A stretch of 64,000 nucleotides of DNA from an uncultured Patescibacteria group bacterium (GCA_905478415.1 CAJQIG010000002.1:5573-69572); one strand, 5' to 3'; positions 2,964 through 53,831 are shown, counted from the stretch's first letter. Translations and numbers: made by a program. Notes: generated by a model from the letters alone, not told the origin.

Positions 2964-2985
2964 AAACTAACAACATAGTACAAAA

Positions 2986-4503: not shown

Positions 4504-4529
4504 AAATAGTACTTTAGAGAAGTAGAACT

Positions 4530-38245: not shown

Positions 38246-39550
38246 GTGAATCTGAGAAGATATAAGAAAGTATGTTTAATGAAACAAAAGATACTTGGCA
38301 TTTTTATTGTCTTTGCTAGTGTTTTTTTGGCGACTAGTCAGGCAAATCAAGCTTATGCTGCTGCCTGTGCTGGAGTTATTAGCGGCATCGGTGACACTCT
38401 CCCCCCCTACTACTCTGGACTAGAGCATGTGATTGTTATGGATATTTCCTCCTACGATCCAAACGACCGGTACTACGTCAAAGTAAAAAATACAAAACTC
38501 ACCGATGATCAAGCTCAAACAGGAAGTTTTCGTTTAAACGATGGAGTATCAGGATCAAATGGTGATTCAAGATGGGAAGTCAGCGGTGGAAAACTCTACA
38601 TCACCATAACTGAAAAAGAAGCACTTGCCCCAAATACAACAGATGGAGAGAACGGTTCTCACTTTGTCGAACTCTACAAACATGAATTTGGATCAAATAG
38701 ATTTTGTGAAATTGGTTACTATTACACACCAAAGAATACCCTCGCAGGAAAATGTACTTTTACTATTACCCAACAACGAACTGGGGCAGATGGAAACACT
38801 CAGGCCTGTTATGCAGCAGGCCAAGCCTCGTGCATGGAAGATGACAAACCGGTTCAAATTGAGGTCTCTGGCCTTGAAGATGCAGATGGACCGTACAATG
38901 GAGCCGTTAGATTTGTCATAGGTGCTGAAGGCTGGGATGCAGGAGGAGATCATATAGAAACATCAACAAATGGCACAGCTACAACCTCAATAACTCCAAA
39001 CTCATCAGCTTCATTTGCAGAAGGAAAAACATATACCGTCAAAATGGAAGCGTCTAGATTAGGAATCAACTTTGACTTTCCAGACCAAAGTTGTACAACA
39101 AAAATTACAATTTCTGACTATTGTGCTCCAGAGCAGTGTGGAGATGAGGCTACAATCGGAGGTGCTCAAGCAATTGGTCCAGACGAATTCAAACTTTGCT
39201 CACAAATAAAAGACCCCGTTGCATTCGAAGCTTGCACTACTTGCGCCGGCGGCGAAGATGGAGAAGATGGCATCTGGACAGCCATTGGCTGTATTAGCAG
39301 AGAACCTGAAGAAATTGTTGGAAAACTCATCAGATTGGGCCTGAGTATGGGTGGTGGAATTGCGCTTCTGATGATCTTATCTGCTGGATTTACACTAACT
39401 GTTTCACAAGGAAACCCACAGAAGGCAGGTCAAGCTAAAGAGATGATTACTGCTGCGGTCACAGGCCTACTCTTCATTATCTTTTCTGTCACTATTCTAC
39501 AATTTATTGGCTTTTCTGTGCTCAAGATACCTGGATTTGGAGGGCCATAA
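38246..39550 (+). CDS. Secreted protein with a ~370-aa extracellular N-domain fused to a C-terminal VirB2/TrbC-like two-TM pilin module
   Basis: Signal peptide. The C-terminus GIALLMILSAGFTLTVSQGNPQKAGQAKEMITAAVTGLLFIIFSV has the same TM-loop-TM module as the 49801-54266 family. Confidence 0.5.
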   Translation: MNLRRYKKVCLMKQKILGIFIVFASVFLATSQANQAYAAACAGVISGIGDTLPPYYSGLEHVIVMDISSYDPNDRYYVKVKNTKLTDDQAQTGSFRLNDGVSGSNGDSRWEVSGGKLYITITEKEALAPNTTDGENGSHFVELYKHEFGSNRFCEIGYYYTPKNTLAGKCTFTITQQRTGADGNTQACYAAGQASCMEDDKPVQIEVSGLEDADGPYNGAVRFVIGAEGWDAGGDHIETSTNGTATTSITPNSSASFAEGKTYTVKMEASRLGINFDFPDQSCTTKITISDYCAPEQCGDEATIGGAQAIGPDEFKLCSQIKDPVAFEACTTCAGGEDGEDGIWTAIGCISREPEEIVGKLIRLGLSMGGGIALLMILSAGFTLTVSQGNPQKAGQAKEMITAAVTGLLFIIFSVTILQFIGFSVLKIPGFGGP

Positions 39551-40083
39551 TGAAAAAAACGTATAGATTATTCTTAACGCTCACACTCTCTCTCCTTTTA
39601 TTGAGAAAGACTCAAATTGTTTTTGCTCAAACTTGCTATGATGACTGCATTTCTGGCGGAAACACCCCAATAGAGTGTAATGCTGCTTGTGGAAACGCTG
39701 TCCCAAATTTTGATGACCCAAATGACGCCATCAACCCAGTCGAAGCCCCAACTGCAGAAACCTTTGACGCCCTCAACCCACTTCAAATTGGTGGGGGTGA
39801 GACTATTGATGATGTAGCTGCTAGTGAGTATGCTGACCAACTTTCTACACCTGGTGGTATAGTAACCCGCCTCCTCGAATTTATTTTTCCTATAGCTGGC
39901 CTGATCCTCTTCTTAATGATCTCCTGGGGTGGCTTTGAAGTTCTTATGGGTAGTGGTGATAGTGGTAAAGTACAAGCCGGAAAACAGAGAGTCACAGCTG
40001 CGATTGTGGGCTTCCTGGTGCTCTTCTCTTCATACTGGCTGATTCAAATTGTTGAAGCAGTTTTTGGTGTCGTTATTTTCTAG
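39550..40083 (+). CDS. VirB2/TrbC-like pilin-family protein (paralog)
   Basis: Signal peptide. C-terminus LILFLMISWGGFEVLMGSGDSGKVQAGKQRVTAAIVGFLVLFSSYWLI: TM helix, short polar loop with GSGDSGK, then a second TM helix. Confidence 0.55.
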   Translation: MKKTYRLFLTLTLSLLLLRKTQIVFAQTCYDDCISGGNTPIECNAACGNAVPNFDDPNDAINPVEAPTAETFDALNPLQIGGGETIDDVAASEYADQLSTPGGIVTRLLEFIFPIAGLILFLMISWGGFEVLMGSGDSGKVQAGKQRVTAAIVGFLVLFSSYWLIQIVEAVFGVVIF

Positions 40084-40088
40084 AGAAC

Positions 40089-40802
40089 TCAACCTCCACC
40101 AAATCTTCTTTTACGCGTAGCAAATTCTGCCAGGACTTCATCTAGTTTTTCTTTGGTAAATTCGGGAAAGTTAAATCTTGGAAAAATTATTTCCGAGTAC
40201 TGTTGTTGCCAAGACATAAATCCTGATAGTCGGATATTATCCATACCAGTTCGAATAATCACGTCAGGATCTGGCATGTAGTGTGTATCTAAATTTTCTG
40301 CAATAGTTTTTTCAGTTATATCTTCAGGTTTGAGACTGCCAGAGGCAACTTGTGTTGCAAGCTTCTGCATCGTTCGAGTTAACTCATCGCGACCGCCGTA
40401 GTTCATGGCTAGAGTAACGGTGATTTTTTTATTTTCTTTGGTTTTTTCTTCACCTTCAACAATTCTCGTTTGAATGTCCTTGGCAAAACCCTTGATATTT
40501 CCAATCATTTTGAACCGAACACCTTTTTCTCCCCAGCCATCAATGCGTTCATCAAAAATTTTTCTAAACAAGTTCATGAGAAAATCGACTTCGACCTTAT
40601 CTCGTTTCCAATTTTCTGTACTAAAAATCCAAAAAGTCAGGTACTGGATACCGCGCTCAATGCTGTGATCGATCAAATCTTCAAACACTTCGTTCACAGC
40701 CTTTTCGTGACCAATAAAAACTTTCAGGCCTCTTTCTCTGGCCCAAGATCTATTGCCATCGCAAATAATAGCTACGTGAGTTGGTATATTACTTTGTTTC
40801 AT
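40089..40802 (-). CDS. uppS: Undecaprenyl diphosphate synthase
   Basis: HVAIICDGNRSWAR and TFWIFSTENWKR. Confidence 0.9.
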   Translation of the reverse strand: MKQSNIPTHVAIICDGNRSWARERGLKVFIGHEKAVNEVFEDLIDHSIERGIQYLTFWIFSTENWKRDKVEVDFLMNLFRKIFDERIDGWGEKGVRFKMIGNIKGFAKDIQTRIVEGEEKTKENKKITVTLAMNYGGRDELTRTMQKLATQVASGSLKPEDITEKTIAENLDTHYMPDPDVIIRTGMDNIRLSGFMSWQQQYSEIIFPRFNFPEFTKEKLDEVLAEFATRKRRFGGG

Positions 40803-41364
40803 AATCAGATCCTAACACTGCTACTTTTGTATTGAATTTGCCTTGCCAGTACTCTTTGAAAATTCTAACATGCTTTGTATTTACATTTTCACCAGCTGCA
40901 ATAAAAACGTCTAGATCAGCTTCGCTGAAAAATCGAGTTTCTGCAACTTCTGCTGTTTCGAGAACAATCGGCTGGCCTGTGTGGATGCCCACGTAGTAAT
41001 ACATAAAATGTGTTTCCCAATCATAGGTATGAAATGCCTTGGTTATAAACACAAGCTCGGTATCAAAACCCAGTTCTTCTTGGAGTTCTGTGTGAGCTGC
41101 TTCAAGTGTATCTTCACCCTTAAGCACATGACCTGCAGTAACTGACCACATACCTGGATTGACAGTTTTGTAGTGACTTCTTTTTTGTAAGAGAATCTTG
41201 TTCTGACTATCTACTAAAATAACTGCAACTTCTCGGTGGGTGTTACTTGGATTGGTGTTGGCTTCTTCACGAATAACTTCACCAATAACTTTATCATTGG
41301 CATCGACCAGATCGAGCAGCTCTGCTGGCTTATTTGCCTTTTCTGTCTGATGAGAAGTATTCAT
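40789..41364 (-). CDS. Nudix hydrolase embedded in the mevalonate operon
   Basis: Nudix box GHVLKGEDTLEAAHTELQEELGF. Start moved to MNTSHQ to avoid a 41-nt overlap with mvaD. Confidence 0.6.
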   Translation of the reverse strand: MNTSHQTEKANKPAELLDLVDANDKVIGEVIREEANTNPSNTHREVAVILVDSQNKILLQKRSHYKTVNPGMWSVTAGHVLKGEDTLEAAHTELQEELGFDTELVFITKAFHTYDWETHFMYYYVGIHTGQPIVLETAEVAETRFFSEADLDVFIAAGENVNTKHVRIFKEYWQGKFNTKVAVLGSDYETK

Positions 41365-41368
41365 ATCT

Positions 41369-42376
41369 TTAAAATAGGTGTTCTTGTATTTCTCTTGGCT
41401 TTCCACCAACCTTGGCAGAAAGTGTTTTTTGAACTAATGGTAATGCCGCTAGTCGCTCGGTAACTCTGGCTTCAAATTTGGGTAGTGTCAATACATGCAC
41501 ATTGAAACCAGTGTTAATAGTGAAGTAACACTCGATTCCCTCTTCCCTCATTCTCTGAACTTCGTGTATCACCTGGACAGTACCTGGATACCACAGAACT
41601 AAAGGAGGTTGGCTTGTTAATAAAATACTATGAAACTCTAAGCATTCTGCTTCGACAAGTGCTCCTAAAGCAGTAAAATCTTTGGCTACAATATAGTTTT
41701 TAGTATCGATGATCTTTTGAGCAATGTGGTCTTGTCGAACTTTGAAAAACACACTTGATCCAGCAGTTTTATGACCTTCAGTCGAAGAAATCTTCTTTTT
41801 ACCTTGATCAACAACTGCAACAACATCCCGGATATCCCAGTGATCTTTGTCAAAAATAGTTTTTGAGTACGAAGTTTCCGAAGTGTCTCCATCAAGCCAT
41901 TCTGTAAATCCTCCCACTGCACATCGACAAGCTGTTCCTGAAGCCTGTCTGCTGAGAATACTGAGCTCTTTTTCACTAAGCTCTAAATCTAGAGCTTGCA
42001 CAGCTGCATAGGTCAATGCTGCCATTCCAGATCCCGAACTTGAAAGTCCAGTACCTCTAGGAAATGAGTTCTCTGAAACAACTTTAGCAAAGAACGCACC
42101 TGCTTTTTTACCTTGCTCTTGGGCGATAGCTCGAATTCTATCAAGGTGTTTAACGACTCGTTTTGCTTCTCTAGAATCGGTGACAATGGTTTCTCCACTA
42201 ATAATAAATTGATCAGCTTCTAAAGCTTCACGAAATTCGACCGTGGTTACAGTATCTAAACCGTCTAGTAAAATAGAAATGCTGCCATTTTCTGGCAACC
42301 GCAGAACTGGATCTTTTTTACCCCAATACTTAACTAACGCTATATCGCTTGAAGCTTTGACCGTAACTTTTTTCAT
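41369..42376 (-). CDS. mvaD: Diphosphomevalonate decarboxylase
   Basis: ASSDIALVKYWGKKD is the N-terminal MVD motif. GHMP fold and size are consistent. Confidence 0.8.
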   Translation of the reverse strand: MKKVTVKASSDIALVKYWGKKDPVLRLPENGSISILLDGLDTVTTVEFREALEADQFIISGETIVTDSREAKRVVKHLDRIRAIAQEQGKKAGAFFAKVVSENSFPRGTGLSSSGSGMAALTYAAVQALDLELSEKELSILSRQASGTACRCAVGGFTEWLDGDTSETSYSKTIFDKDHWDIRDVVAVVDQGKKKISSTEGHKTAGSSVFFKVRQDHIAQKIIDTKNYIVAKDFTALGALVEAECLEFHSILLTSQPPLVLWYPGTVQVIHEVQRMREEGIECYFTINTGFNVHVLTLPKFEARVTERLAALPLVQKTLSAKVGGKPREIQEHLF

Positions 42377-42383
42377 GAAATTC

Positions 42384-43376
42384 CTACTCTGTTTCTATTC
42401 GCACACCTTCGGCGTGAACAGCTACTTCGATTATTTTGCCACCGTGAGCTTTCAGAGCTTCAATAACTGCTGGCTGAACATCTTCTGGAGCCAACGCTAA
42501 AATACAATCACCACCGGCAGCTCCCGATGATGTTGCACCTAAAGCTCCAGCTGCAAGAGCAGCTCCAGTGAGTTCTTCCAGCTTAGCGTTACTAACGCGA
42601 AGCTTCTGGGCACATACTTGAGAGGTAGTAAAAAGATCTCCAATAGCTTTCCAATTACCTGCTTCAGCTGGTTGAGTAAAAGCATTTGCTATTTCTGCAA
42701 TTTCTTCAAAAATAGCTTGAATCTTTTCGGGATTATCAGCCAACATTGTATCAACGACTCGAATAAGTGTTGGTGTATCAGCTTTTGCACCAGAATAAGC
42801 GATCACAAGGGGGATTTTTTTAATAGCAATGGGACGAACGATTTTCGCAGGGCTGACATAGTAGAGGGTGCCACCCCAAATGGCAGCGGCAATATCGTAT
42901 CCAGAACCTACACCTTGAACCTCAATAACCGCGTTATAGCATAAATTAAAAAGCTCTTGGTTGGTGAGCTTGATGCCATATAACGTTGTTAGGGCTTTTG
43001 CAAAAGCAACGGTAACTGCACTGCTTGATCCAAATCCATAGGTCGAGGAAAAATCACTTTTTGTGGTCACAATAATACCCTCTTTTTGAGGGTGTTTTTC
43101 GAGAAAATGTTTATATAAAATTTCGATAAATCGCACTGCTTTTGGTAAATCTTTTTTTCCAAGGTCAGCCATGTTTTTTGTATAAGCCGTTAAGCCTAAG
43201 TCTGGAGCATCTAGGTGAAAGACGTCAACTCCATTCTTTTTAACCGTAGCAAACAAGCGCTGATCAACTGCCGTCACAATCGTGGGATGACCATGCACCA
43301 CTGCATAACCAACTGAGAGCATCAATTTTCCTGGTGCCGAAGCAGTTACTTGATTTTGTTCTGTTGTTTTTGTCAT
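42384..43376 (-). CDS. Phosphomevalonate kinase (GHMP family)
   Basis: APGKLMLSVGYAVV matches the PMK N-motif APGKLxLxGEY. GFGSSSAVTVA matches GHMP motif 2. Confidence 0.65.
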   Translation of the reverse strand: MTKTTEQNQVTASAPGKLMLSVGYAVVHGHPTIVTAVDQRLFATVKKNGVDVFHLDAPDLGLTAYTKNMADLGKKDLPKAVRFIEILYKHFLEKHPQKEGIIVTTKSDFSSTYGFGSSSAVTVAFAKALTTLYGIKLTNQELFNLCYNAVIEVQGVGSGYDIAAAIWGGTLYYVSPAKIVRPIAIKKIPLVIAYSGAKADTPTLIRVVDTMLADNPEKIQAIFEEIAEIANAFTQPAEAGNWKAIGDLFTTSQVCAQKLRVSNAKLEELTGAALAAGALGATSSGAAGGDCILALAPEDVQPAVIEALKAHGGKIIEVAVHAEGVRIETE

Positions 43377-43412
43377 GTGTTTACTGCTTTCTTTAGAAAG
43401 TCCTCGAAAAGA

Positions 43413-44285
43413 CTATTGTACCTCAACCATAAAGTTTTCCCAAGCCTGGGCATTACAAAATGCTTGCAACTCTTCAAGATTATGGCTTGTTGCAAGTAGC
43501 CAACCAGAGCCAGTTGTAACACCTCCAGCTCCAGTAATTTTGGTGTGGGCACCTTCTCCTTGCAACTGTTTGATCATTTTTATAGCTTTTTGACTAACAA
43601 CTCCAAGTGACTCAAGCTCAATTTGATTTGCATCAAGTAACTCACCAGTAAATGAGCCATCAAGCAACTGTTCTCTAATAAACCCACTTATGGTTCCAAT
43701 TTTTTTACAATGCTGATGTAACTTTGGATCTTTTTTAAGAGTATCAGCAACTTTTTGCACCATTTCACCAGTGGTTTCTGTAGCTTCGCCAGAATTAATA
43801 AGCAGAAATGAGTATTTTTGAGGTAACGTTAGTTTTGTACAACTCATCTGTTTTGTATCTTTTATAAATGAGTGTGTTCCTCCATACACAACCGCACACG
43901 GATCAATACCGCTAGGATTTGTATGTATAAACACTTCTGATAGAAAAACTAAATCGTACAGTTGCTCACTGGAAAGCGTGATTGAATACGTATCTGCAAG
44001 TGCTTGCATAACAGCATGCGCATATGCTGCTGAAGAACCAAGTCCCGCTTTTTTTGGCAACTCACTAACGACTGAAACTGAAACATTGCTTGCCTCAACT
44101 GAAAAGTGCTCAGAAAAAAGCGATACAATGTGCTGCAAGTAGGGAGATCTCGGTGCTAAAGCAACTTTGGTCACCTGAACAGTTACTCCTTTAGTAATAG
44201 CTGACACTACCGCTGGATAGCCATATACCACACTGTGCTCACCAGTGATAATTACTTTTCCAGGTGAAAAAAAGGTTTTGTTCAT
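43413..44285 (-). CDS. mvk: Mevalonate kinase
   Basis: SPGKVIITGEHSVVYG and GLGSSAAYAHA. Confidence 0.75.
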   Translation of the reverse strand: MNKTFFSPGKVIITGEHSVVYGYPAVVSAITKGVTVQVTKVALAPRSPYLQHIVSLFSEHFSVEASNVSVSVVSELPKKAGLGSSAAYAHAVMQALADTYSITLSSEQLYDLVFLSEVFIHTNPSGIDPCAVVYGGTHSFIKDTKQMSCTKLTLPQKYSFLLINSGEATETTGEMVQKVADTLKKDPKLHQHCKKIGTISGFIREQLLDGSFTGELLDANQIELESLGVVSQKAIKMIKQLQGEGAHTKITGAGGVTTGSGWLLATSHNLEELQAFCNAQAWENFMVEVQ

Positions 44286-44569
44286 AGTTTTTCTGCTTTT
44301 AAGCCATACGGTATCGGCTGGCTTGGAGTATTTGAAGCTAATCGACGAAGTACTAATCGGACTGCATCCCCCTTGACAAATGTTACTCCGGGAACTCCCA
44401 TAACTTCCATCTTTTTTTCTTCGACAGAAATAATCAAAAAGCTATAGGGGGAAAAAAGTGCTTGGGCTGTTGGAGGAATAAAAATCTGAGTCGATTGAAC
44501 AACTGTACCTGTTTTAAATAACAGGTTTGACCAGTTACCTTTTTTTCTCCAATATTCTGCTGGTTTCAT
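44282..44569 (-). CDS. DUF35-like OB-fold protein (archaeal thiolase/HMGCS scaffold-type)
   Basis: 95-aa ORF translationally coupled between the thiolase and mvk. The position matches the archaeal thiolase-HMGCS-DUF35 trio. Only weak sequence motifs. Confidence 0.4.
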   Translation of the reverse strand: MKPAEYWRKKGNWSNLLFKTGTVVQSTQIFIPPTAQALFSPYSFLIISVEEKKMEVMGVPGVTFVKGDAVRLVLRRLASNTPSQPIPYGLKAEKL

Positions 44570-45732
44570 GACTGTCCCTTTTCGAGAATATGTACCACTG
44601 CTGTAGCACCACTACCACCAACATTATGTGTCAAACCAACTGAAAAATCAGAGTTTTCACGAAGGAGACGAGTCATGTAAGCCACTTGCTTAACTCCCGT
44701 GGCTCCAACAGGGTGTCCACAAGCTTTAAGACCTCCCGAGTGATTAATTATTGGCAACGAACTTTTTAACTTCTTTTGTGAGCTTTGACGATACTGTGAC
44801 AGTGTTGTTTCTTCTTTCAACACTGCGGTGGCAGCAGTTCCTCTCTTGCAAAAACCGAGATCTTCCATTGCAAATAACTCTGCAATGGTAAAACAATCAT
44901 GTACTTCGGCAACTTGAATATCCGTTGGTTTTTTGTTTGCCATTGCATATGCTTTTTTTGCTGCATCTACCGTACTCTGCAACGATGTGAGAGAACTTCT
45001 GCGAGCTAGGTCCAGTGTTTCTTGTCCCTGCCCAAAACCAGTTAGGGCTACCAATTGCTTACGCGATGGCTTTACAGATAACACAACTGCAGCTGCTCCA
45101 TCAGTAATTGGTGAACAATCAAGAATTCTGAGCGGATCGGCTACTAACATGCTTTTTTCAACTTGGTCTGGAGTAATTGTTCTTCTGAACTGAGCTTGTT
45201 GATTTGCGAGTGCATGGCTGTGATTTTTTGCTGCAATCATACTCAATGCTCGACGCGGTGTCTGGTATTTATGCATGTGTTCTTTTGCTAGAAGCGCATA
45301 GAGACCTGGAAATGTGCTCCCATACTCTCTTGCTGCATCAGCTGCCGAGGAAAGTATCGTGGTAACACCATTTGTATCATCGGTCATTTTTTCGACCCCA
45401 ACAACTAAAACCGTTTGGTACATGCCCGAAAGCAGCGCCATCTCGGCTTGCAGAACTGCTAAACCACCAGAAGCACAAGCAGCTTCGACTCGGGTGCTCG
45501 GGGGAAGATGTGAGAAAAAGCTTGAAACAAGCGCCCCCAAATGCTGCTGGCCTTCAAATTGTCCAGCGGCCATGTTTCCAACAAAGATGGCTTCAATGGT
45601 ACTAGGCTGTATGACAGCATCTGCGACTGCTCCAAGCGCAGCCTCTTTGGCTAAGTCTTCCAAGCTGCGATCCCACAGTTCTCCGAACTGAGTAATATGT
45701 GTGCCTTGGACAAAAATGGGAAGGTGTGACAT
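44566..45732 (-). CDS. Acetyl-CoA C-acetyltransferase, archaeal-type (SCP-x-like) thiolase
   Basis: Thiolase fold with the active Cys region EAACASGGLA and a Gly-rich C-terminus HNVGGSGATA. It lacks bacterial AtoB-type motifs. Confidence 0.65.
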   Translation of the reverse strand: MSHLPIFVQGTHITQFGELWDRSLEDLAKEAALGAVADAVIQPSTIEAIFVGNMAAGQFEGQQHLGALVSSFFSHLPPSTRVEAACASGGLAVLQAEMALLSGMYQTVLVVGVEKMTDDTNGVTTILSSAADAAREYGSTFPGLYALLAKEHMHKYQTPRRALSMIAAKNHSHALANQQAQFRRTITPDQVEKSMLVADPLRILDCSPITDGAAAVVLSVKPSRKQLVALTGFGQGQETLDLARRSSLTSLQSTVDAAKKAYAMANKKPTDIQVAEVHDCFTIAELFAMEDLGFCKRGTAATAVLKEETTLSQYRQSSQKKLKSSLPIINHSGGLKACGHPVGATGVKQVAYMTRLLRENSDFSVGLTHNVGGSGATAVVHILEKGQS

Positions 45733-45734
45733 GT

Positions 45735-46781
45735 TTAGTGTCCCCTCGATGTATTTTTTAGATACTCTGAGTACGAAAGAGTGTATGACTTTTTAAGCTG
45801 GTCTGATACTAATGAGTTCCAAGCGCTTCTCTTTTTAACTAGTAAGGGAGTTGTTTTAAGTAGGAATGCATCTGAACCAGCTCCCGATCCATAAGAGGCC
45901 AATAAAATTGTTTTATTAGCTCCTACTGTATCCAGTAAGTGCGCCAATGCAATCAAAGAAGCAGCCGAGTAAGTATTTCCCACCGTTTCTACGAGTAATG
46001 AAGGCTCAATTTGTTCTTTAGAGAACCCTAATCTTTTGGCAACCTGACGAGGAAACTTTGCATTTGGCGTATGAAAAACACAGTAATCAATTTGGCTTGG
46101 TGTAAGCTTGTTTTGATTGAGAAGTTGAGTAACACTTTTAGTAATATGAGCAAAATAGGCTGGTTCACCAGTAAATCTACCTGCATGACTGGGGAATGGC
46201 GCGCCTGCGGCGCGCCAAAAGTCCGGCGTATCACTCACCACCGAAACAGTATCTAACATTTCAACTAACATCCCTCGGCTCCCAACTACAAAAGCTGCAC
46301 TTCCAGCCGAGGCCGTGTATTCAAGTGCATCTCCAGGAGCTGCTTGAGCCGTGTCGCTGCCAATAGCGAGACCTAGTTCGTGCTGACCAGCTTGCACATA
46401 GGCAGCCGCAATCTGTAAACCTTGAGTTCCAGCTTTACAAGCGAACTCTAAATCGGCAACTGCTAACTGTTCTGAAAGTCCAAGGGCTGCTGCCACGGTG
46501 GCACCTGTTGGTTTAACTGCGTAAGGGTGACTTTCACTTCCCACAAATACCGAACCCACCTTCTCTTTTTTAAAACTACTTCGTTCTAAAGCTTGCCCCG
46601 CTGACATAACTGCCAAAGTAGCTGCGTCTTCGTCAACTTGTGGTACTGATTTTGAAATAAGACCAGCCGCTTTTTGAGTACTCCCCGGACTTTTTCCACG
46701 AACCATATCAATTTCTGCAGAAGTCAATCTGCCAGAGGGGATATAACAACCATAAGAAACAATACCAATCTTTTTTTTCAT
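45735..46781 (-). CDS. Hydroxymethylglutaryl-CoA synthase (archaeal-type)
   Basis: MKKKIGIVSYGCYIPSGRLTSAEI N-terminus. Condensing-enzyme fold. Confidence 0.75.
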   Translation of the reverse strand: MKKKIGIVSYGCYIPSGRLTSAEIDMVRGKSPGSTQKAAGLISKSVPQVDEDAATLAVMSAGQALERSSFKKEKVGSVFVGSESHPYAVKPTGATVAAALGLSEQLAVADLEFACKAGTQGLQIAAAYVQAGQHELGLAIGSDTAQAAPGDALEYTASAGSAAFVVGSRGMLVEMLDTVSVVSDTPDFWRAAGAPFPSHAGRFTGEPAYFAHITKSVTQLLNQNKLTPSQIDYCVFHTPNAKFPRQVAKRLGFSKEQIEPSLLVETVGNTYSAASLIALAHLLDTVGANKTILLASYGSGAGSDAFLLKTTPLLVKKRSAWNSLVSDQLKKSYTLSYSEYLKNTSRGH

Positions 46782-47971
46782 TGGGATCGTCCTAATCGTT
46801 TATGTGCTGCTGCTAATGTATTAGTGCAAAGTGCTGCTAAGCCAGAAATTTCACCACCCAGTGCAACCGCTGCAACTGTGGCTGCTAACACGTGTGCTGT
46901 CAGCTTTTCTCCCGTAATTATCTGTTGCCACTGACGTTGTCCGGGTAGTAAAGTTCCTCCACCAACGGTTCCCACCGGCAGTGAAGCAATTTCTAAACGG
47001 ACCTGAACTCCACCTCCAACCGCTTCAAAAAAAACTTCTGCCGAAGATGCTACGTCAACCACATGTGCAATGTCTTGACCGGTAGCAACAAAAATTCCTG
47101 CCACTGCGTTAGCAACGTGCATATTCCCTGCAGGAATTCCAGCCAGTTGTGAACCAACCACATTTTTAGCAACATGTGTGGCAACTAAATCACCAGCAGC
47201 TACTTTCAGAACATTTTCTAAAACAGTTGGTGGAAGAAGTGCTTCTGCTCGTACTCGATATCCTCGACCAAGTTCCCTATTAATTCTCGATGGTTTTTTA
47301 TCTGTGCAAAGATTGCTCGATAAAGCTCTGAGTGAAACATCTTGTTTCATTTTTCTAGGAACTAACGTATTCCACCAATGGGAAAGAGCAATGCTGACCA
47401 TATTCATTCCCATTGCTTCACCAGTATCAAAAACACATCTGACAAACACTAAGTTGCCTTCAACCCATGTTTTTTGAGAAATAAAATGAAGGTGTGAACT
47501 AGTTGCAAGTGATGCCTCTTCAAAGAGTGAGCTATGTTCTGTAACCCAGTTTGCAAATTTTTGGGCTGATTTTGGAGTCGCGCACTCAAAAACAGGGGCT
47601 CTACTCATCCCCACTTTTTCTACCTGAACATTGAATTCTTTGGAAAGCGAAAGTGCTCGCACACCTCTACTTAAACTCGCAATTAGGGCACCTTCGGTTG
47701 TTGCAATTGGAACAATGACTTTAGCTATTTTGGTGATGTCAGGACCATCAGCCAAAGGAAGATTAAATGGGCCAACCACTCCAACCGGCAGAGCTACTGT
47801 GCCAACTAGGTTTTCACAATTTTTTGAACCAACAGACTGAATATCAAAAGGGAATACTTGTGTCTTTTGTAAAATCTCACCTCGAAGTTCTTTGAGCAAA
47901 CTCACTCGGGCTGAAACTTTCGCTTCTTCTGATTGATTTGATCGAATGTAAAAAGACTTTTGTGACATCAC
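46778..47971 (-). CDS. Hydroxymethylglutaryl-CoA reductase
   Basis: DTGEAMGMNMVS, the GTVGGGT motif and a size of ~400 aa. Confidence 0.8.
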   Translation of the reverse strand: MMSQKSFYIRSNQSEEAKVSARVSLLKELRGEILQKTQVFPFDIQSVGSKNCENLVGTVALPVGVVGPFNLPLADGPDITKIAKVIVPIATTEGALIASLSRGVRALSLSKEFNVQVEKVGMSRAPVFECATPKSAQKFANWVTEHSSLFEEASLATSSHLHFISQKTWVEGNLVFVRCVFDTGEAMGMNMVSIALSHWWNTLVPRKMKQDVSLRALSSNLCTDKKPSRINRELGRGYRVRAEALLPPTVLENVLKVAAGDLVATHVAKNVVGSQLAGIPAGNMHVANAVAGIFVATGQDIAHVVDVASSAEVFFEAVGGGVQVRLEIASLPVGTVGGGTLLPGQRQWQQIITGEKLTAHVLAATVAAVALGGEISGLAALCTNTLAAAHKRLGRSQ

Positions 47972-48016
47972 GTAAAGTTAGTCGCAAAAAGAGAGTCAAA
48001 TCATGCAAAGTAAAAG

Positions 48017-48646
48017 TTATTTTGTTTCTGCCAGACCTGCTTGTAACATCATCACTGTCCATGGAGCCAATTTCATATGCTTTCCACCAAGTAATACGGG
48101 TAAAGGCTGCATATTTTCAGCTAACTCATTCCACGAAGCTTCAAGAGATGTTTGCAAAGTGTAGTAGCCCTGTTCTGAAACAGCAGCTTGGATTACTTTT
48201 TTTAATTCTTCAAGTGATATCCAACTATAGTCGCTCACCTCATCAGGGTTGGCAATGACCTCAACATCATCAACATTCATAAAGAAAATTTGATCAACTT
48301 CATGTTCACTGTACTGCTGATTGCAGTAGGCTTTATACTCGAATTTTTCACCTTTTTTTAAAACCATTTGGTCAACGGAAATACCCAACTCACCTTTGAG
48401 CCTTCTGATTGCACAAGCTTCATAGGTTTCTCCATCCCATACATTACCACACACTGTATTCGCCCACCAAAGAGCTCCCACAATTTTTTTACTGCTTCGC
48501 TGCTGGAACAACACTTCTCCCCGAGCATTAGTAAGCCAAACCGAGATAGCACGATGACGTTTGGGTGGATTTTGATGAGCCGTATACTTTTCAAGTGTTC
48601 CCACTTGAGTGTCATCTGTTGATACTAAAATAATTTGTTCACTCAT
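48017..48646 (-). CDS. idi: Isopentenyl-diphosphate delta-isomerase, type 1 (Nudix family)
   Basis: WANTVCGNVWDGETYEACAIRRLKGELGI closely parallels the Idi type 1 active-site region. Confidence 0.75.
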   Translation of the reverse strand: MSEQIILVSTDDTQVGTLEKYTAHQNPPKRHRAISVWLTNARGEVLFQQRSSKKIVGALWWANTVCGNVWDGETYEACAIRRLKGELGISVDQMVLKKGEKFEYKAYCNQQYSEHEVDQIFFMNVDDVEVIANPDEVSDYSWISLEELKKVIQAAVSEQGYYTLQTSLEASWNELAENMQPLPVLLGGKHMKLAPWTVMMLQAGLAETK

Positions 48647-49047
48647 GTATTCCTAACAATTAATTTAAAGCGCAGTAATAAATACAACAGTAGTACTTGC
48701 CAATATAAACAGAAAAAGACTACCGTGTTTGACACAAATGATAACAAATCACACGACACGTAGTACTTCGTAGAACAAGAAAAGAGTATCTGGGCAAGTG
48801 GTACAACCAAAAACTTCCACAGTACCGTGGCTGCTGCTAGAATATATAAAGGAGTGACTGTCATCCAAACAAACACTTTTCCTTTTACCAAGGACTGCAT
48901 TGTCTGGTACGGATGGAGTAACAAACCTAAAGCAACTTGACCCGTGGAATAAAATAGTGAGAGAAAAACTATTTTTTTATTCATACCTTTTCGATAACTT
49001 CTAATAAAAATGCCGAGAGTAGAGATAAAGAAAGTAACACTTGCCAA
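48643..49047 (-). CDS. Hypothetical membrane protein (possible C-terminal part of an anti-sigma factor)
   Basis: Three hydrophobic helices. It overlaps 48981-49175 in another frame. Confidence 0.35.
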   Translation of the reverse strand: MASVTFFISTLGIFIRSYRKGMNKKIVFLSLFYSTGQVALGLLLHPYQTMQSLVKGKVFVWMTVTPLYILAAATVLWKFLVVPLAQILFSCSTKYYVSCDLLSFVSNTVVFFCLYWQVLLLYLLLRFKLIVRNT

Positions 49048-49175
49048 ACATGTGTGCCCACAAAAGCGGAAACCGCATCAACTTGTCTAGGAAGTAGTCG
49101 TGTCTTTGAAAGCTTTTTTTGAAACTCAGCTTCTGTTTGTAGTTTTGCTAGGAATTCTGTTTGAGAAAGACTCAT
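48981..49175 (-). CDS. Small protein immediately downstream of the ECF sigma factor; possible anti-sigma N-terminal segment
   Basis: Starts 3 bp after the sigma stop. Cytoplasmic N-terminus followed by a TM onset VWQVLLSLSLLSAFLL. The frame differs from 48643-49047. Confidence 0.3.
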   Translation of the reverse strand: MSLSQTEFLAKLQTEAEFQKKLSKTRLLPRQVDAVSAFVGTHVWQVLLSLSLLSAFLLEVIEKV

Positions 49176-49178
49176 CTG

Positions 49179-49703
49179 CTACTCTTCCCGTATCCATAAA
49201 TACTGAAACTCTTTTCGAGCTCTAAATAAGTCTGATTCAATGGCTTTACAACTTCGGCCGCATCTCGATGCAATCTCAGCAACCTTAAGTTTATCAATGT
49301 ACTTTTGTTGTAAGAGCTCACCCGATTCCCGCTTCATTTTAGAAAGAACAGAAGCTACTTTTTCAGACACATCATCTGCATCGTGCACATGGGAGATCAT
49401 GAATGAATCAACCAATGGGAAGGTCTTTAAAGCCTTCTTTGCATATTTTTTTCGATAATAATCAGCAATTTCATGACGCAAGACTGCGTTCATCCACGTC
49501 CACAGCGAAGATTTTCCACGAAATAATCCAATTTGCTTCATGCAGTTTATAAACGTTTCTTGCACCAGTTCTTCGGCCTCGGCTTTATCAGAGACACGCA
49601 GCTGGGCTACAACAAGTAAACGATCAAAGTATGTAGTAAACCAAGTCGCAACAGCTCGTTGTTCACCGTTTTGAAGACCAGTAATAAGTTTTGCCTCTTG
49701 CAT
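49179..49703 (-). CDS. RNA polymerase ECF-type sigma-70 factor
   Basis: Region 2 EELVQETFINCMKQIGLFRGKSSLWTWMNAVLRHEIADYYRKK and region 4 LKVAEIASRCGRSCKAIESDLFRARKEF. Confidence 0.8.
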   Translation of the reverse strand: MQEAKLITGLQNGEQRAVATWFTTYFDRLLVVAQLRVSDKAEAEELVQETFINCMKQIGLFRGKSSLWTWMNAVLRHEIADYYRKKYAKKALKTFPLVDSFMISHVHDADDVSEKVASVLSKMKRESGELLQQKYIDKLKVAEIASRCGRSCKAIESDLFRARKEFQYLWIREE

Positions 49704-49800
49704 GTATTTCAGATACTTTCATATAGTAGAGATACTCTAGGTGAAATGTTCAATCGCCTGGGGTAGTAAAGAAAGTTAAGTTACTATATAATACCATTAC

Positions 49801-50151
49801 ATGAAGCTTCAGTTGATACCACAAGCCTACGCTCAATGTTCCCCCGGAAGTGGAGGCGTTAATCTTGGTGACTGCCTCAAGCTTTCTGATAGTACTCCTG
49901 TCAGCGAAGTGTATAGCAACCCCGCTTTTCTCGTTAATTTAGTTGTCAGAAATTTGTTTATTGTTGGTGGCATTGTCCTAGTCATCATGTTCTTTCTAGC
50001 TGGATACAAATTTATTCTTAAAGGCAAGGAAGGTGTCCAAGAAGCACAATCACTTGCAACTAATGCCTTAATTGGCTTCATTATTATGTTTGCAGCCTAC
50101 TGGATTGTACAAATTATTGCTCTCATTACTGGAGCTGACATAGCACTGTAA
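49801..50151 (+). CDS. VirB2/TrbC-like pilin-family protein, paralog 1 of a 9-gene tandem array
   Basis: Signal/anchor. C-terminus LFIVGGIVLVIMFFLAGYKFILKGKEGVQEAQSLATNALIGFIIMFAAYWIVQ: TM-loop-TM. Confidence 0.5.
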   Translation: MKLQLIPQAYAQCSPGSGGVNLGDCLKLSDSTPVSEVYSNPAFLVNLVVRNLFIVGGIVLVIMFFLAGYKFILKGKEGVQEAQSLATNALIGFIIMFAAYWIVQIIALITGADIAL

Positions 50152-50156
50152 ACCGC

Positions 50157-50615
50157 ATGAAAATTCGTTCTCATTTCACCACTGTCATCTCTACCGCTTC
50201 TTTTTTTCTACTCGCCCTTATCCCCCAACTTAGAATTGTTTCTGCCGTCTTTGCTCAAGATGATCCAATTGGAACAATCGATAAACCAGAAGCTGTTGCA
50301 AACTTTGACAACGCTGGCGGAATTGGTGAAGGTGATATTGGAGTACTGTTTTTCTTCTCAAGAATGATTAGCTATATCACCATTGTTGCAGGTATTTGGT
50401 CATTCTTTAACTTGATCTTGGCTGGATATACCTATGTAACTTCTTCAGGAAACGCACAAAGTCACACCACCGTTCGAGATAAAATCACCATGAGCATCTT
50501 GGGAATGGTTTTGATTGTCACTGTCTATGCCATCGCCGGTATCATTGGCACTATTTTCTTTGGCAACTCCCTTTACTTCCTCAATCCAACCATCGAAGGA
50601 CCGGCTGCGATATAA
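50157..50615 (+). CDS. Pilin-family paralog 2
   Basis: Signal peptide. ITIVAGIWSFFNLILAGYTYVTSSGNAQSHTTVRDKITMSILGMVLIVTVYAIAG. Confidence 0.5.
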   Translation: MKIRSHFTTVISTASFFLLALIPQLRIVSAVFAQDDPIGTIDKPEAVANFDNAGGIGEGDIGVLFFFSRMISYITIVAGIWSFFNLILAGYTYVTSSGNAQSHTTVRDKITMSILGMVLIVTVYAIAGIIGTIFFGNSLYFLNPTIEGPAAI

Positions 50616-50630
50616 CCAAGGTACTGATTT

Positions 50631-51149
50631 ATGAAAAAACTTCTCTCTCAAACACTCATTTTTGCCATCATCTTTAGTAGTTTTTTACTGTTTACTCCTC
50701 AAAAAATTCAAGCCCAAGAGTGTTCTTATACCAGTCAGTGTGTTAATAACCAAAGCTGCTTATGTATCAGTGGTAGCATTTGCTTTCTAACTCCCTCGCC
50801 TTGTGGCTCCGCAATTATTGGAGAAGTGGCACCACCTCAAGGTGTAGCTGCTTATAATGAAGAAGCCGGTGGTGAAATTGGTCTCTTTAAGTTCGCCTCG
50901 AGGATTATTTCTCTCGCCTCTATTATCGGTGGTATTATTGTCATGGTGAACTTTGTTTCTGCTGGCTTTACCTATGTCACTTCGGCTGGAAATGCGAGCG
51001 CTCACGAAAAAGTTAAAGATAAAATCACCTGGGGATTAGTAGGACTAGCAATAATTGCTGCCTTCTACACCATTGCTGGTCTAGTCGGCCTCTTATTCTT
51101 TGGAAATGCAGGGGCTATCTTAAATCCAACTCTTGGTGGATCAGTGTAA
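50631..51149 (+). CDS. Pilin-family paralog 3 with a Cys-rich N-terminal insert
   Basis: Signal peptide, then QECSYTSQCVNNQSCLCISGSICFLTPSPCGS, then the module FVSAGFTYVTSAGNASAHEKVKDKITWGLVGLAIIAAFY. Confidence 0.5.
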   Translation: MKKLLSQTLIFAIIFSSFLLFTPQKIQAQECSYTSQCVNNQSCLCISGSICFLTPSPCGSAIIGEVAPPQGVAAYNEEAGGEIGLFKFASRIISLASIIGGIIVMVNFVSAGFTYVTSAGNASAHEKVKDKITWGLVGLAIIAAFYTIAGLVGLLFFGNAGAILNPTLGGSV

Positions 51150-51208
51150 AAGTACAGAACTTGAAGAAACGAGTACAAAAGAAGTAATAATTAGGATATA
51201 CTATACTT

Positions 51209-51577
51209 ATGTTAACGCTCATAGCACAATTTGGTGGAGGATTTGACACTGGCGATGCCCCTTTTTCTGAAGGTGTTGAAACCAATGAAGGAGCTCTTAC
51301 TAATCTAGAATCCTTTATTTCAAATATTATCGGAGTGTTAACTGTTTTTGGCGCAATTTTCTTTATTGTCTACTTTTTAATCGCTGCTCTTGCTTGGGTT
51401 ACCAGTGGAGGAGATAGTGGAAAACTGCAAAACGCCAGAGAACGCATGCTGCATGGGGTGCTTGGACTCATTATCTTAGTTGCCGCATATGGAATAGTTG
51501 GACTCATTGGATCTATCATTGGCTTTGATATCTTAAGTCCAGCTGAAAAATTACTTGAGTTAGCGCCAACACCATAA
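51209..51577 (+). CDS. Pilin-family paralog 4
   Basis: LIAALAWVTSGGDSGKLQNARERMLHGVLGLIILVAAYG. No obvious signal peptide in the ORF as tracked. Confidence 0.45.
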   Translation: MLTLIAQFGGGFDTGDAPFSEGVETNEGALTNLESFISNIIGVLTVFGAIFFIVYFLIAALAWVTSGGDSGKLQNARERMLHGVLGLIILVAAYGIVGLIGSIIGFDILSPAEKLLELAPTP

Positions 51578-51579
51578 TT

Positions 51580-52068
51580 ATGAAAAAACACATCACCACA
51601 ATTATCACCGCTACAACCACTTTTGGAGTAACACTACTTGCTCCTCTTAAAGCCTTTGCTGCTATTAATAATCCTGTCCTTCCCGAAAACTTAGGAGGAA
51701 CTGCAGATTCTTCTGAAGCAGCAACAAGTGGAACTGTATTTGTACAATATCTCGTCTCTCTTTGGGAATCTATGATAAACATTGGAGGGCTTTTAGTGCT
51801 CTTCTATTTTGCCTGGGGCAGCATTGAATGGATTACTGCTGGTGGCGATAGTGGAAAACTCGAGAAGGCACGTCTCCGAATGATGCATGCCATAATTGGC
51901 CTACTGATTCTAGTTTCAAGCTTTGTTATCCTCGGCTACATTAGCACAGCAATGTTTGGTGAAGAATTCCAAATCCTTAATCTTTCATTCCCGACTCCAG
52001 GAGACGCTGCTGGAGCAGCTGGCGGAGGTGGTAGTGGAGGCGGAGGCGGTGGTAATAACGTAATGTAG
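51580..52068 (+). CDS. Pilin-family paralog 5 with a Gly-rich C-terminal tail
   Basis: Signal peptide. WGSIEWITAGGDSGKLEKARLRMMHAIIGLLILVSSF. C-terminus AGAAGGGGSGGGGGGNNVM. Confidence 0.5.
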   Translation: MKKHITTIITATTTFGVTLLAPLKAFAAINNPVLPENLGGTADSSEAATSGTVFVQYLVSLWESMINIGGLLVLFYFAWGSIEWITAGGDSGKLEKARLRMMHAIIGLLILVSSFVILGYISTAMFGEEFQILNLSFPTPGDAAGAAGGGGSGGGGGGNNVM

Positions 52069-52081
52069 TGGTAAAAATTTT

Positions 52082-52660
52082 ATGAAACTCGCACAAGTCA
52101 CACTCGATTTTGCACAAGAAGCAATAGATAAAGAAGTTCCTGGGACAGCTAACCTTGATGCTGCAAACCACGCATCTGGATTTGGTCCTCTCCTTGGTAG
52201 TATTTTTTCATTCGTAATGCTCATTGCAGCTATTCTGGTCATATTTTACCTGATTTGGGGAGCTTTCGAATGGATCACTTCTGCAGGTGACAAAGGAAAA
52301 CTTGAAAAAGCCAGGCAACGTATTACGGGCGCAATTTTAGGTATCGTGGTACTTGGTTCTGTTATAGCTATCTTTATGGTTGTCCAACAATTCTTAGGAA
52401 TTGAGGCCTTCACCTTTGTTGGTGCCAGTGGTGGCACTAGCAGCGGTGGCGGAGGTGGGGCGGCAGTGGCTGATGGTGCCTGTGTTGTTAATGGCTCTAT
52501 GCTCAATGACGGTGGTGCAGGAAATTACTGTACTCAAGGAGCAGCTATCGTTCGTTGTTTTCCTCCTGAGGGAAGCTATGCCAGCAATCACTATAACCCC
52601 TGCTCTTGTGTAGATGGATCACAGTACGAACGACCAGGCTACAACTTTGGTTCGTGCTAA
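52082..52660 (+). CDS. Pilin-family paralog 6 with a Cys-rich C-terminal extension
   Basis: WGAFEWITSAGDKGKLEKARQRITGAILGIVVLGSV followed by a ~90-aa extension containing seven Cys. Confidence 0.5.
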   Translation: MKLAQVTLDFAQEAIDKEVPGTANLDAANHASGFGPLLGSIFSFVMLIAAILVIFYLIWGAFEWITSAGDKGKLEKARQRITGAILGIVVLGSVIAIFMVVQQFLGIEAFTFVGASGGTSSGGGGGAAVADGACVVNGSMLNDGGAGNYCTQGAAIVRCFPPEGSYASNHYNPCSCVDGSQYERPGYNFGSC

Positions 52661-52752
52661 TAAACCAGCCAAAGAAATTGGCTTGACTATTTCTCTGGAA
52701 CACAGGTATAATTGAAAGTATTAAGTTTGTAACTAAAGTAATAAGGAGAAGC

Positions 52753-53157
52753 ATGACAAACTCACTTAAAAAAATGGCAGCTTCAGCTGTCGCTACCGGA
52801 ACCGCTTATTTAACAGCCGTTTCACCAGTATTTGCTCAAATTGACGTAACTACCATCGAACCAGGAAAAGGTTTCGCAACTAACATCGGTGATGTTATTA
52901 ATGCTGTTCTCTCTTTTGTCATGGTAATCGCTGCCCTCTTGGTATTTATGTACCTTATCTGGGGTGGTATCGAATGGATCACATCGGGTGGAGACAAAGG
53001 TAAGACTGAATCTGCACGTAACAAAATTACTGCAGCTATCTTGGGACTTATCGTTCTTGCTGCTTCATATGCAATCCTCTTAATTGCTCTTAACTTCATC
53101 GGGTTTGAAAACCTTGGAGATGCTTTCAGCAATGTTAAAAGAATTAATGGTAACTAA
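52753..53157 (+). CDS. Pilin-family paralog 7
   Basis: Good SD aAGGAGaagcATG. Signal peptide. WGGIEWITSGGDKGKTESARNKITAAILGLIVLAASY. Confidence 0.55.
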   Translation: MTNSLKKMAASAVATGTAYLTAVSPVFAQIDVTTIEPGKGFATNIGDVINAVLSFVMVIAALLVFMYLIWGGIEWITSGGDKGKTESARNKITAAILGLIVLAASYAILLIALNFIGFENLGDAFSNVKRINGN

Positions 53158-53184
53158 TAGATAGTTATCTTAGACTTGAAACCG

Positions 53185-53215
53185 AAGGCCTCGCACTCTG
53201 TGCGAGGCTTTTTGG
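53185..53215 (+). terminator. Rho-independent terminator inside the pilin array
   Basis: aaggcctcgcac-tctg-tgcgaggctt followed by tttgg. Confidence 0.8.
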
Positions 53216-53242
53216 ATTCAAAAACAAACTTAGTAATATCGA

Positions 53243-53797: not shown

Positions 53798-53831
53798 TTT
53801 GGTATACTAAAAAAGTAGAAAAATTATATTT

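Follow-up and report, generated by a model that had tools for sequence, protein, structure and literature searches.

What is encoded by the 95-amino-acid (95-aa) open reading frame (ORF) that lies among mevalonate (MVA) pathway genes in a 64,000-nt stretch of bacterial DNA, CAJQIG010000002.1:5573-69572 (the whole stretch is called the window here)? The host is a bacterium of the candidate phyla radiation (CPR, Patescibacteria) and is kin of 'Candidatus Pacebacteria'. The ORF follows the genes for 3-hydroxy-3-methylglutaryl-CoA (HMG-CoA) synthase (HMGCS) and acetoacetyl-CoA thiolase, and an earlier note on this DNA had read the three genes as a counterpart of the archaeal thiolase/HMGCS/DUF35 complex. 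Our results showed that the 95-aa ORF was homologous to DUF35, specifically to the MVA-associated DUF35, and by sequence comparison it is an orthologue of the DUF35 of the archaeal complex and lacks only the Cys4 zinc ribbon of that protein. The archaeal-type trio was therefore borne out by the family profile, the Foldseek matches and the synteny, with the DUF35 present as a ribbon-less variant, referred to below as mini-DUF35.

Identification of the 95-aa ORF as a DUF35 protein

The 95-aa sequence alone gave no Pfam match even at E<=10 and no NCBIfam match, and no match was found when it was compared with the PDB by phmmer. The protein contained no cysteine. Nine close homologues (59-100% identical, 95-101 aa) were collected, and seven of the nine matched PF01796, the DUF35 OB-fold (oligonucleotide/oligosaccharide-binding) domain, with a best E-value of 4.8e-6. 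The nine-sequence profile could be aligned from one end to the other with residues 47-124 of 6esq_E, but the E-value was only 0.18; this chain is the subunit labelled 'Pfam DUF35' in the thiolase/HMGCS complex of Methanothermococcus thermolithotrophicus. A profile search of a library of 1.84 billion proteins recovered 138 cluster representatives at E<=1e-3, so that the family comprises 138 or more clusters at 50% identity. Nearly all family members were 95-105 aa long, and the residues R8, G21, Y42, G67, R75, Y88 and K91 were near-invariant across the mini-DUF35 family. Because 138 family clusters were found and almost all of them were about 100 aa long, the 95-aa ORF is a real gene and not a chance ORF.

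When a family profile of 116 sequences was compared with the PDB, 6esq_E was matched at E=2e-19, whereas the same profile matched the other DUF35 proteins (ChsH2, BbsA, PhlB, MucC and Shy) at 1e-4 to 0.03. The predicted structures pointed in the same direction. For the first AlphaFold model of the protein, with a predicted local distance difference test (pLDDT) score of 73, the top Foldseek matches were 6esq_F, E and G; the model built from a deep alignment reached a pLDDT of 91.8 and consisted of a helix (residues 3-16) followed by a five-stranded barrel. PDB entries 7pxp, 6ok1 and 9myr were also among the structural matches. A comparison of the ORF with DUF35 models, as proposed in the earlier note, was thus negative for the exact sequence, which was a false negative, but positive through the close homologues and the family profile. 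Members of the family are annotated as 'hypothetical protein' in public records, and a literature search found no paper mentioning DUF35 together with Patescibacteria.

Loss of the zinc ribbon

The canonical DUF35 architecture consists of a PF12172 zinc ribbon and a PF01796 OB domain, with an N-terminal helix before the ribbon that is used in partner binding. In the 95-aa protein, the PF01796-type OB fold and the N-terminal helix were present and the rubredoxin-like Cys4 ribbon was absent, so the protein should be filed as a ribbon-less variant rather than as a canonical DUF35 member. A MAFFT alignment of seven long DUF35s (the archaeal and Chloroflexota orthologues) with eight short ones revealed one clean 32-residue gap in every short form. 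The gap removed exactly the Cys4 ribbon, and the OB domain and the N-terminal 'xWRxxxxxxxLxG' aligned on either side of it. The 'P-A-x-Y-W-R' motif of the mini-DUF35 aligned with 'xWRxxxxRYxLxG' of the full-length orthologues. The deletion was in-frame and had the same boundaries in all lineages aligned, and no CxxC pair was found in about 140 family representatives. Since a zinc finger is present in every structurally characterised DUF35 (PMC12329534; PMC6392133), the short form is most simply explained, on this alignment, as a derived deletion that was fixed early in this CPR lineage.

Gene order in related loci

A genome scan with the HMGCS protein as the query returned 80 loci (given L numbers below), which were then searched with hidden Markov models (HMMs) of the window proteins. 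The closest HMGCS loci were from metagenome-assembled genomes (MAGs) of CPR/Patescibacteria and were 51-73% identical, with 73% for L007, 71% for L008 ('Candidatus Pacebacteria bacterium CG_4_9_14_0_2_um_filter_40_15', phylum Minisyncoccota) and 51% for a Woesebacteria locus. The next HMGCS relatives, both at 42-50%, were from Chloroflexota (mostly Anaerolineae) and from archaea (Thermoproteota, Nitrososphaeria, Caldarchaeum and others). HMG-CoA reductase (HMGR), HMGCS and thiolase genes followed by a DUF35 of about 100 aa without CxxC were present in all the CPR loci extending past the thiolase (13/13). The archaeal loci and about 15 Chloroflexota loci had HMGCS and thiolase followed by a DUF35 of 128-150 aa, and two CxxC pairs were found in those of the long DUF35s that were checked. 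In the sampled loci, the mini-DUF35 was restricted to CPR. Even the members with only 25-27% identity (P0069, P0122 and P0085) were encoded directly after HMGCS and thiolase, in L087, L088 and L091.

Most of the Anaerolineaceae loci (in the range L022-L062) gave no DUF35 match with the mini-DUF35 HMM; in these loci the DUF35 might have diverged or been fused, or it might be missing. The thiolases of those loci scored low, at about 110-150 bits. In L012, L014, L015 and L016, the mini-DUF35 gene was followed by a second gene resembling that for isopentenyl-diphosphate isomerase (IDI) and then by uppS, in place of the two kinases and diphosphomevalonate decarboxylase (MDD), and in L091 uppS was located directly after the mini-DUF35 gene. 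With the kinases and MDD replaced in these loci, the lower half of the pathway must be located elsewhere or be different there. Several of the MAGs containing L007, L009, L010, L012, L014-L016 and L018 carry the public title 'Pseudomonadales bacterium' (for example, isolate HK-STAS-PATE-16), which looks like a taxonomic mislabel of Patescibacteria bins.

Extent of the operon and pathway enzymes

The region is a 14-gene operon at 40089-49703 on the minus strand. The features, in the order of transcription from the candidate promoter, were as follows.

49782-49796, minus strand: candidate operon promoter, extended -10-like TGGTATTATATAGTA (conservation)
49179-49703, minus strand: ECF-type (extracytoplasmic function) sigma-70 family sigma factor, first gene (PF04542, PF08281, PF07638; TIGR02937)
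48981-49175, minus strand: 64-aa ORF with a single C-terminal hydrophobic segment (called on an identical contig)
48643-48984, minus strand: 113-aa membrane protein with three hydrophobic segments (hydropathy, conservation)
48017-48646, minus strand: isopentenyl-diphosphate isomerase type 1, idi (NF002995, TIGR02150)
46778-47971, minus strand: HMG-CoA reductase, class I (PF00368, TIGR00533)
45735-46781, minus strand: HMG-CoA synthase, archaeal type (TIGR00748, NF003274)
44566-45732, minus strand: acetoacetyl-CoA thiolase, archaeal/SCP-x (PRK06064) type (NF004720, NF053570)
44282-44569, minus strand: zinc-ribbon-less DUF35 (mini-DUF35), 95 aa, putative thiolase/HMGCS scaffold (family profile, fold)
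43413-44285, minus strand: GHMP kinase 1, 290 aa, mevalonate-kinase-like, mevalonate kinase (MVK) or phosphomevalonate kinase (PMK) (TIGR00549, 2oi2_A)
42384-43376, minus strand: GHMP kinase 2, 330 aa, MVK-like, PMK or MVK (NF003036, TIGR01220, 4hac_A)
41369-42376, minus strand: diphosphomevalonate decarboxylase (TIGR01240, PF22700, PF18376)
40789-41364, minus strand: YfcD/IDI-like Nudix hydrolase, accessory (PF00293, 2fkb)
40089-40802, minus strand: undecaprenyl-diphosphate synthase (UppS, a cis-prenyltransferase), last gene (PF01255, TIGR00055)

All eleven ORFs that the earlier note had placed at 40089-49047 on the minus strand were present with the coordinates and the order given there. Its gene list held for order and families but not for the start of the operon, because the unit extends upstream to 49703 and has three genes before idi. 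The '134-aa membrane protein' at the head of that list was a TTG-extended ORF (to 49047); the conserved gene, according to conservation and the gene calls on the identical contig, encodes 113 aa. Similarly, 41364 is the more likely start of the Nudix gene, which gives a protein of 191 aa and agrees with the gene call on the identical contig; the ORF extending to 41409 has a TTG start. Overlaps of 4 bp (ATGA) were found between the genes for the 113-aa membrane protein and IDI, HMGR and HMGCS, the thiolase and the 95-aa ORF, and the 95-aa ORF and the kinase that follows it, and the spacing at the remaining junctions was 2-45 bp. The GC content of the operon did not depart from that of the surroundings.

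The enzymes of the upper pathway were compared with family models and structures. The thiolase scored 419.6 bits with NF004720 and 391 bits with NF053570 (M. thermolithotrophicus type) but 92.5 bits with the AtoB-type TIGR01930; it matched 6esq_A at 259.8 bits, and the catalytic Cys (EAACASG), HDxF (HDCF) and GHx (GHP) motifs were retained. The archaeal/SCP-x type assigned to the thiolase in the earlier note was confirmed by these scores and this alignment, and no grouping with AtoB or FadA was seen. HMGCS scored 377 bits with TIGR00748 (cut-off 353) and 430 bits with NF003274, against 108 bits with the bacterial-type TIGR01835; in the PDB, it matched 6esq_I at 336.7 bits and bacterial-type HMG-CoA synthase structures at about 74 bits (best 1xpk_A). 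The Glu/Cys/His/Asn catalytic tetrad of HMGCS, as defined in PMC12960953, was retained in the alignment with 6esq_I. HMGR matched PF00368 across the full domain (299.8 bits) and scored 259 bits with TIGR00533 (NADPH, class I) versus 31 bits with TIGR00532 (class II). Judged by these comparisons, the thiolase, HMGCS and HMGR are all of archaeal type.

The type 1 IDI scored 128.4 bits with NF002995 (cut-off 127) and 110.4 bits with TIGR02150 (cut-off 105.8). Compared with the E. coli IDI structures, the residues Cys67, Glu114, Glu116, His25 and His32 were present and His69 was replaced by Asn. This replacement of a metal ligand, with CGN in place of the canonical CGH, was common to all CPR IDI-1 orthologues examined. 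When compared with E. coli IDI, the IDI copies upstream of HMGR carried about 20-30 additional residues as a C-terminal insertion, which several of the second IDI copies downstream of the mini-DUF35 gene (L014-L016) did not have.

The earlier labels mvk and pmk were right in that two GHMP kinases are encoded, but by their scores the two are candidates for MVK and PMK in either order. GHMP kinase 1 scored 154 bits with TIGR00549 (cut-off 163) and 42 bits with the PMK model, and its best PDB match was the mevalonate kinase 2oi2_A (73.8 bits). GHMP kinase 2 scored 160 bits with NF003036 and 139 bits with TIGR00549, as compared with 92.6 and 75 bits with the PMK models TIGR01220 and NF040957, and its best PDB matches were the mevalonate kinases 4hac_A and 6mde_A (about 100 bits). 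The stronger PMK signal of the two was thus that of kinase 2 (TIGR01220, 92.6 bits). MDD scored 250.8 bits with TIGR01240 (cut-off 171.35), with additional matches to PF22700 and PF18376, and 184.7 bits with the phosphomevalonate decarboxylase model NF040704, which was under the cut-off of 475. Two kinases and a bona fide MDD fit a predicted classical MVK-PMK-MDD route. UppS matched PF01255 at 224 bits and TIGR00055 at 220.4 bits (cut-off 109.55). A complete classical MVA operon ending in uppS, as had been described earlier, was therefore supported by the family models, with the PMK assignment putative. Among the 30 other ORFs of the window that were scanned, no gene of the methylerythritol phosphate (MEP) pathway, for isopentenyl phosphate kinase or for a trans-prenyltransferase was found.

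The embedded Nudix protein

The Nudix protein encoded between MDD and UppS matched PF00293 at 68.7 bits, and its best PDB match was E. coli YfcD (2fkb). The Nudix box, G-x5-E-x7-TELQEELGF, was intact. In the alignment with IDI, however, the catalytic residue Cys67 fell on a gap (TA-GH) and Glu116 was replaced by His, and the score with NF002995 was 62 bits, far below the cut-off of 127. The protein had been suggested to be a second IPP (isopentenyl diphosphate) isomerase, which is unlikely with both IDI catalytic residues missing, and this role was rejected. Since the Nudix box is intact and the IDI catalytic residues are absent, the embedded protein is more likely an accessory hydrolase. Among the related loci scored with the window-protein HMMs, the Nudix gene was found in L008 and L011 only.

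The sigma factor at the head of the operon and a candidate promoter

The product of the first gene scored 68.5 bits with the sigma factor model TIGR02937 (cut-off 42.9). The genes for the sigma factor, the 64-aa ORF and the 113-aa protein occurred in the same order in seven CPR loci (L007-L012 and L018). In these loci, the gene immediately before idi encoded the 113-aa protein, with conservation scores of 127-167 bits. An ECF sigma gene was at the operon head, upstream of small ORFs preceding idi or HMGR, in L007-L012, L018, L088, L089 and L091; the distant L088, L089 and L091 had the ECF sigma gene and small ORFs at the head of an HMGR-HMGCS-thiolase-mini-DUF35 block. In L016 and L020 a sigma homologue was present, but elsewhere in the locus. 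No family match was found for the 113-aa protein, and in L091 its place was occupied by a Yip1-family membrane protein. The 64-aa ORF, with a single transmembrane segment, gave no Pfam or NCBIfam match; from its position and topology, we infer that it would be an anti-sigma factor. This arrangement suggests a lipid-carrier operon controlled by a sigma/anti-sigma pair.

The intergenic regions of the loci were compared by counts of shared 7-mers. In the 97-bp divergent intergenic region, the element TGGTATTATATAGTA preceded the sigma gene by about 80 bp and adjoined the start codon of a pilin-like gene on the plus strand. It was identical in L007 and L008 and near-identical in L011 (TGTTATTATATAGTA), and the corresponding sequences were TGGTATAGTATA in L009 and TGTTATAGTATA in L010. 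The conserved candidate promoter element at 49782-49796 is also given as TGGTATTATA. TGGTATTATATAGTA occurred once in the window, against 0.09 occurrences expected by chance, and it was the one conserved element revealed by the 7-mer counts. It looks like a housekeeping extended -10 element and is a candidate promoter of the operon. A generic scan of 39500-50300 for promoters and terminators returned sites at chance frequency only.

Proposed function and alternative explanations

The region is probably a classical MVA operon in which an archaeal-type thiolase and HMGCS are joined by a mini-DUF35 scaffold and which supplies UppS. The encoded route would lead from acetyl-CoA through acetoacetyl-CoA and HMG-CoA to mevalonate, and then through two phosphorylations to IPP, in equilibrium with dimethylallyl diphosphate (DMAPP), followed by the cis-prenyltransferase; the two MVK-like kinases would divide the MVK and PMK steps between them. 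The operon would in this way supply the undecaprenyl lipid carrier for envelope synthesis. The mini-DUF35 would clamp the thiolase to HMGCS via the N-terminal helix and the OB fold, and HMG-CoA synthesis would draw the unfavourable condensation to acetoacetyl-CoA forward at a shared CoA site without release of the intermediate, as in the Methanothermococcus complex. Pulling of the endergonic thiolase reaction through a shared CoA site has been described (PMC12960953, PMC12329534). In the archaeal complex, DUF35 serves as the scaffold, and subunits that are expressed singly are insoluble or lack activity (PMC12960953). The Nudix protein would be a hydrolase and not an isomerase, and the sigma factor and small membrane proteins would link expression of the operon to envelope signals. 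For the CPR trio, complex formation and channelling are what we infer by analogy, because the proteins are orthologous to the chains of the complex, the genes are strictly adjacent over deep divergence and they are translationally coupled.

Several observations weigh against this proposal. The archaeal thiolase is bound in a cleft that is formed by the zinc ribbon on one side and the OB domain on the other (PMC6996347), and half of this cleft, the zinc ribbon, is missing in the mini-DUF35. In 6ESQ, each of the three proteins contributes residues that contact CoA (PMC6392133). The CPR trio must accordingly have a different interface, and no compensating CPR-specific insertion was found in the thiolase or HMGCS, which showed differences of 2-4 residues only. 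Among the enzymes, the 259 bits of HMGR were below the TIGR00533 equivalog cut-off of 441.8, and both GHMP kinases, although their best scores were as MVK, did not reach the equivalog cut-offs, so that the PMK step is assigned indirectly. In addition, no trans-prenyltransferase, which would provide the FPP (farnesyl diphosphate) primer for UppS, was found in the window (30 other ORFs scanned). The fuller proposal, that a minimal 95-aa scaffold of helix and OB fold runs a channelling complex, that the ribbon is dispensable and that the operon is a conserved ECF-sigma-headed regulon, is tentative and falls somewhat short of probable.

Alternatively, the mini-DUF35 might partner the thiolase only, for solubility or active-site shaping as in BbsA-BbsB and ChsH2-DUF35-Ltp2, with no bridge to HMGCS and no channelling. 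In several systems, DUF35 proteins occur in complexes with a thiolase alone (7pxp, 6ok1, 9myr; PMC12329534), the archaeal complex uses a surface that is partly lost with the ribbon, and no compensating indels were found in the partner enzymes. Such a restricted role is nevertheless unlikely: the family profile matched the MVA-complex DUF35 at 2e-19 and the thiolase-only DUF35s at 1e-4 or weaker, the mini-DUF35 gene always followed the HMGCS-thiolase pair, and both HMGCS and the thiolase closely resembled their counterparts in the archaeal complex. The missing domain, which is found in every structurally characterised DUF35 (PMC12329534), might also be taken as a sign that the 95-aa ORF is a decaying, functionless remnant of a DUF35 gene, the more so as its exact sequence is not recognised by Pfam and the family is labelled 'hypothetical protein'. 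Against decay, at least 138 clusters at 50% identity share the length of about 100 aa and the motifs, the gene position is kept down to 25% identity, the fold was predicted with confidence, and the deletion is in-frame with identical boundaries in all lineages. A pseudogene remnant is thus extremely improbable, and it was rejected on the conserved length, motifs, position and predicted fold.

The origin of the cluster was considered as well. HMGCS, the thiolase and HMGR are of archaeal type, and outside CPR the nearest relatives of HMGCS include archaea (42-50% identity), as would be the case if the cluster had been acquired recently from archaea by horizontal transfer rather than being a long-standing CPR trait. 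However, the closest relatives were all from CPR (51-73%), and outside CPR the Chloroflexota were as close as the archaea. The operon and its flanks (pilin arrays, ECF sigma and SpoIID) were conserved across deeply diverged CPR, the GC content matched the surroundings, the mini-DUF35 occurred in CPR loci only within the sample, and the published CPR clades are congruent with the CPR species tree (PMC6107057). Recent archaeal transfer is very improbable and was rejected on the CPR-wide conservation, the GC content and the CPR-restricted mini-DUF35. The reading of the region as a long-standing CPR operon with a scaffold-type mini-DUF35 is preferred.

Neighbouring genes in the window

Directly after uppS, convergent genes for pilins of the type IV secretion system (T4SS) were found on the plus strand. 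Arrays of small T4SS-pilin-family (PF18895) genes were located on both sides of the operon, at 38246-40083 and 49801-54266 (both on the plus strand). Pilin arrays followed by SpoIID recurred at the distant CPR loci L088 and L091, and with this arrangement shared, the whole neighbourhood is syntenic. Elsewhere in the window, the ORFs at 29532-31304, 31320-32411, 32564-34000 and 17360-19711 (all on the minus strand) encoded an ATP-dependent DNA ligase, a Fic-domain protein, a Schlafen/AlbA_2 and HATPase_c_4 protein and a VirB4/TrwB-like ATPase, respectively; the ligase had all three domains of the archaeal/eukaryotic type. Large ORFs without any Pfam match were present at 1056-7040 (plus strand), 14150-17350 (minus strand) and 58697-60310 (plus strand). 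An Rfam scan of the window gave a single match, a tRNA at 9767-9839, and no tandem repeats were found.

Comparison with known systems

The type of cluster has already been published, and what is new is the zinc-ribbon-less DUF35 family. This family amounts to a natural deletion experiment on a scaffold family that is under study in several settings, namely archaeal MVA synthesis, steroid aldolases, benzylsuccinate degradation and Friedel-Crafts acyltransferases. Should the CPR trio form a channelling complex, the minimal scaffold would be a metal-free helix and OB fold of 95 aa; this would be useful for the engineering of acetyl-CoA-to-HMG-CoA modules and would reveal which functions do not require the ribbon. 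Genome mining with a PF01796 probe, as in PMC12960953, may miss at least some of the loci, because Pfam is blind to this sequence and to two of its nine close homologues. The mini-DUF35 family also explains a recurrent 'hypothetical protein' of CPR. The ECF sigma factor at the head of the operon provides a lead on the control of envelope precursors in organisms with very few regulators and, if its proposed role is true, the sigma factor and the small membrane proteins would tie lipid-carrier supply to envelope signalling in reduced genomes.

The MVA operons of the Gram-positive bacteria Staphylococcus, Enterococcus and Streptococcus are organised as mvaS/mvaA and mvaK1-mvaD-mvaK2. In these organisms, MvaS is of the bacterial type, HMGR belongs to class II, and the thiolase is of the AtoB type and has no DUF35 partner. 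The CPR operon shares with them the classical MVK/PMK/MDD route with GHMP-family enzymes, and its kinase 1 is nearest to 2oi2_A. In contrast to those operons, its HMGCS scored only about 74 bits with the bacterial-type structures and its HMGR only 31 bits with the class II model.

Clusters of MVA genes in CPR, especially in the Microgenomates group, were described by Hoshino and Gaucher in 2018 (Mol Biol Evol, PMC6107057). These clusters contain an archaeal acetoacetyl-CoA thiolase (AACT), their enzymes group near the archaeal ones, they are typically syntenic with a gene for cis-isoprenyl diphosphate synthase (cis-IPPS), and the MEP pathway is sparse in CPR (PMC6107057). The operon in the window agrees with them in the synteny with cis-IPPS (uppS) and in the Microgenomates group lineage, and because the CPR cluster has been known since 2018, the operon itself adds little. 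The linkage of the MVA genes to uppS, which had been pointed out as notable, is present but not novel. DUF35 (0 occurrences), the ECF sigma factor with the small membrane proteins and the embedded Nudix gene are not mentioned in that paper.

For the trio, the closest characterised system is the archaeal thiolase/HMGCS/DUF35 complex (6ESQ; 2018 PNAS, cited in PMC6996347 and PMC12960953). The DUF35 of that complex has 130 residues, whereas the one here has 95 and the Cys4 ribbon (32 residues) is deleted; in addition, the host here is bacterial (CPR), the trio lies inside a full classical MVA operon with uppS, and its complex formation and channelling are predicted. The other characterised DUF35 proteins serve other pathways: PhlB/MucC belong to Friedel-Crafts acyltransferases, BbsA to benzoylsuccinyl-CoA thiolase and ChsH2/Shy to steroid aldolases. 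Unlike the mini-DUF35, PhlB/MucC, BbsA, ChsH2, Shy, Trf and SSO2064 all keep the zinc finger, as either Cys4 or Cys3His (PMC12329534).

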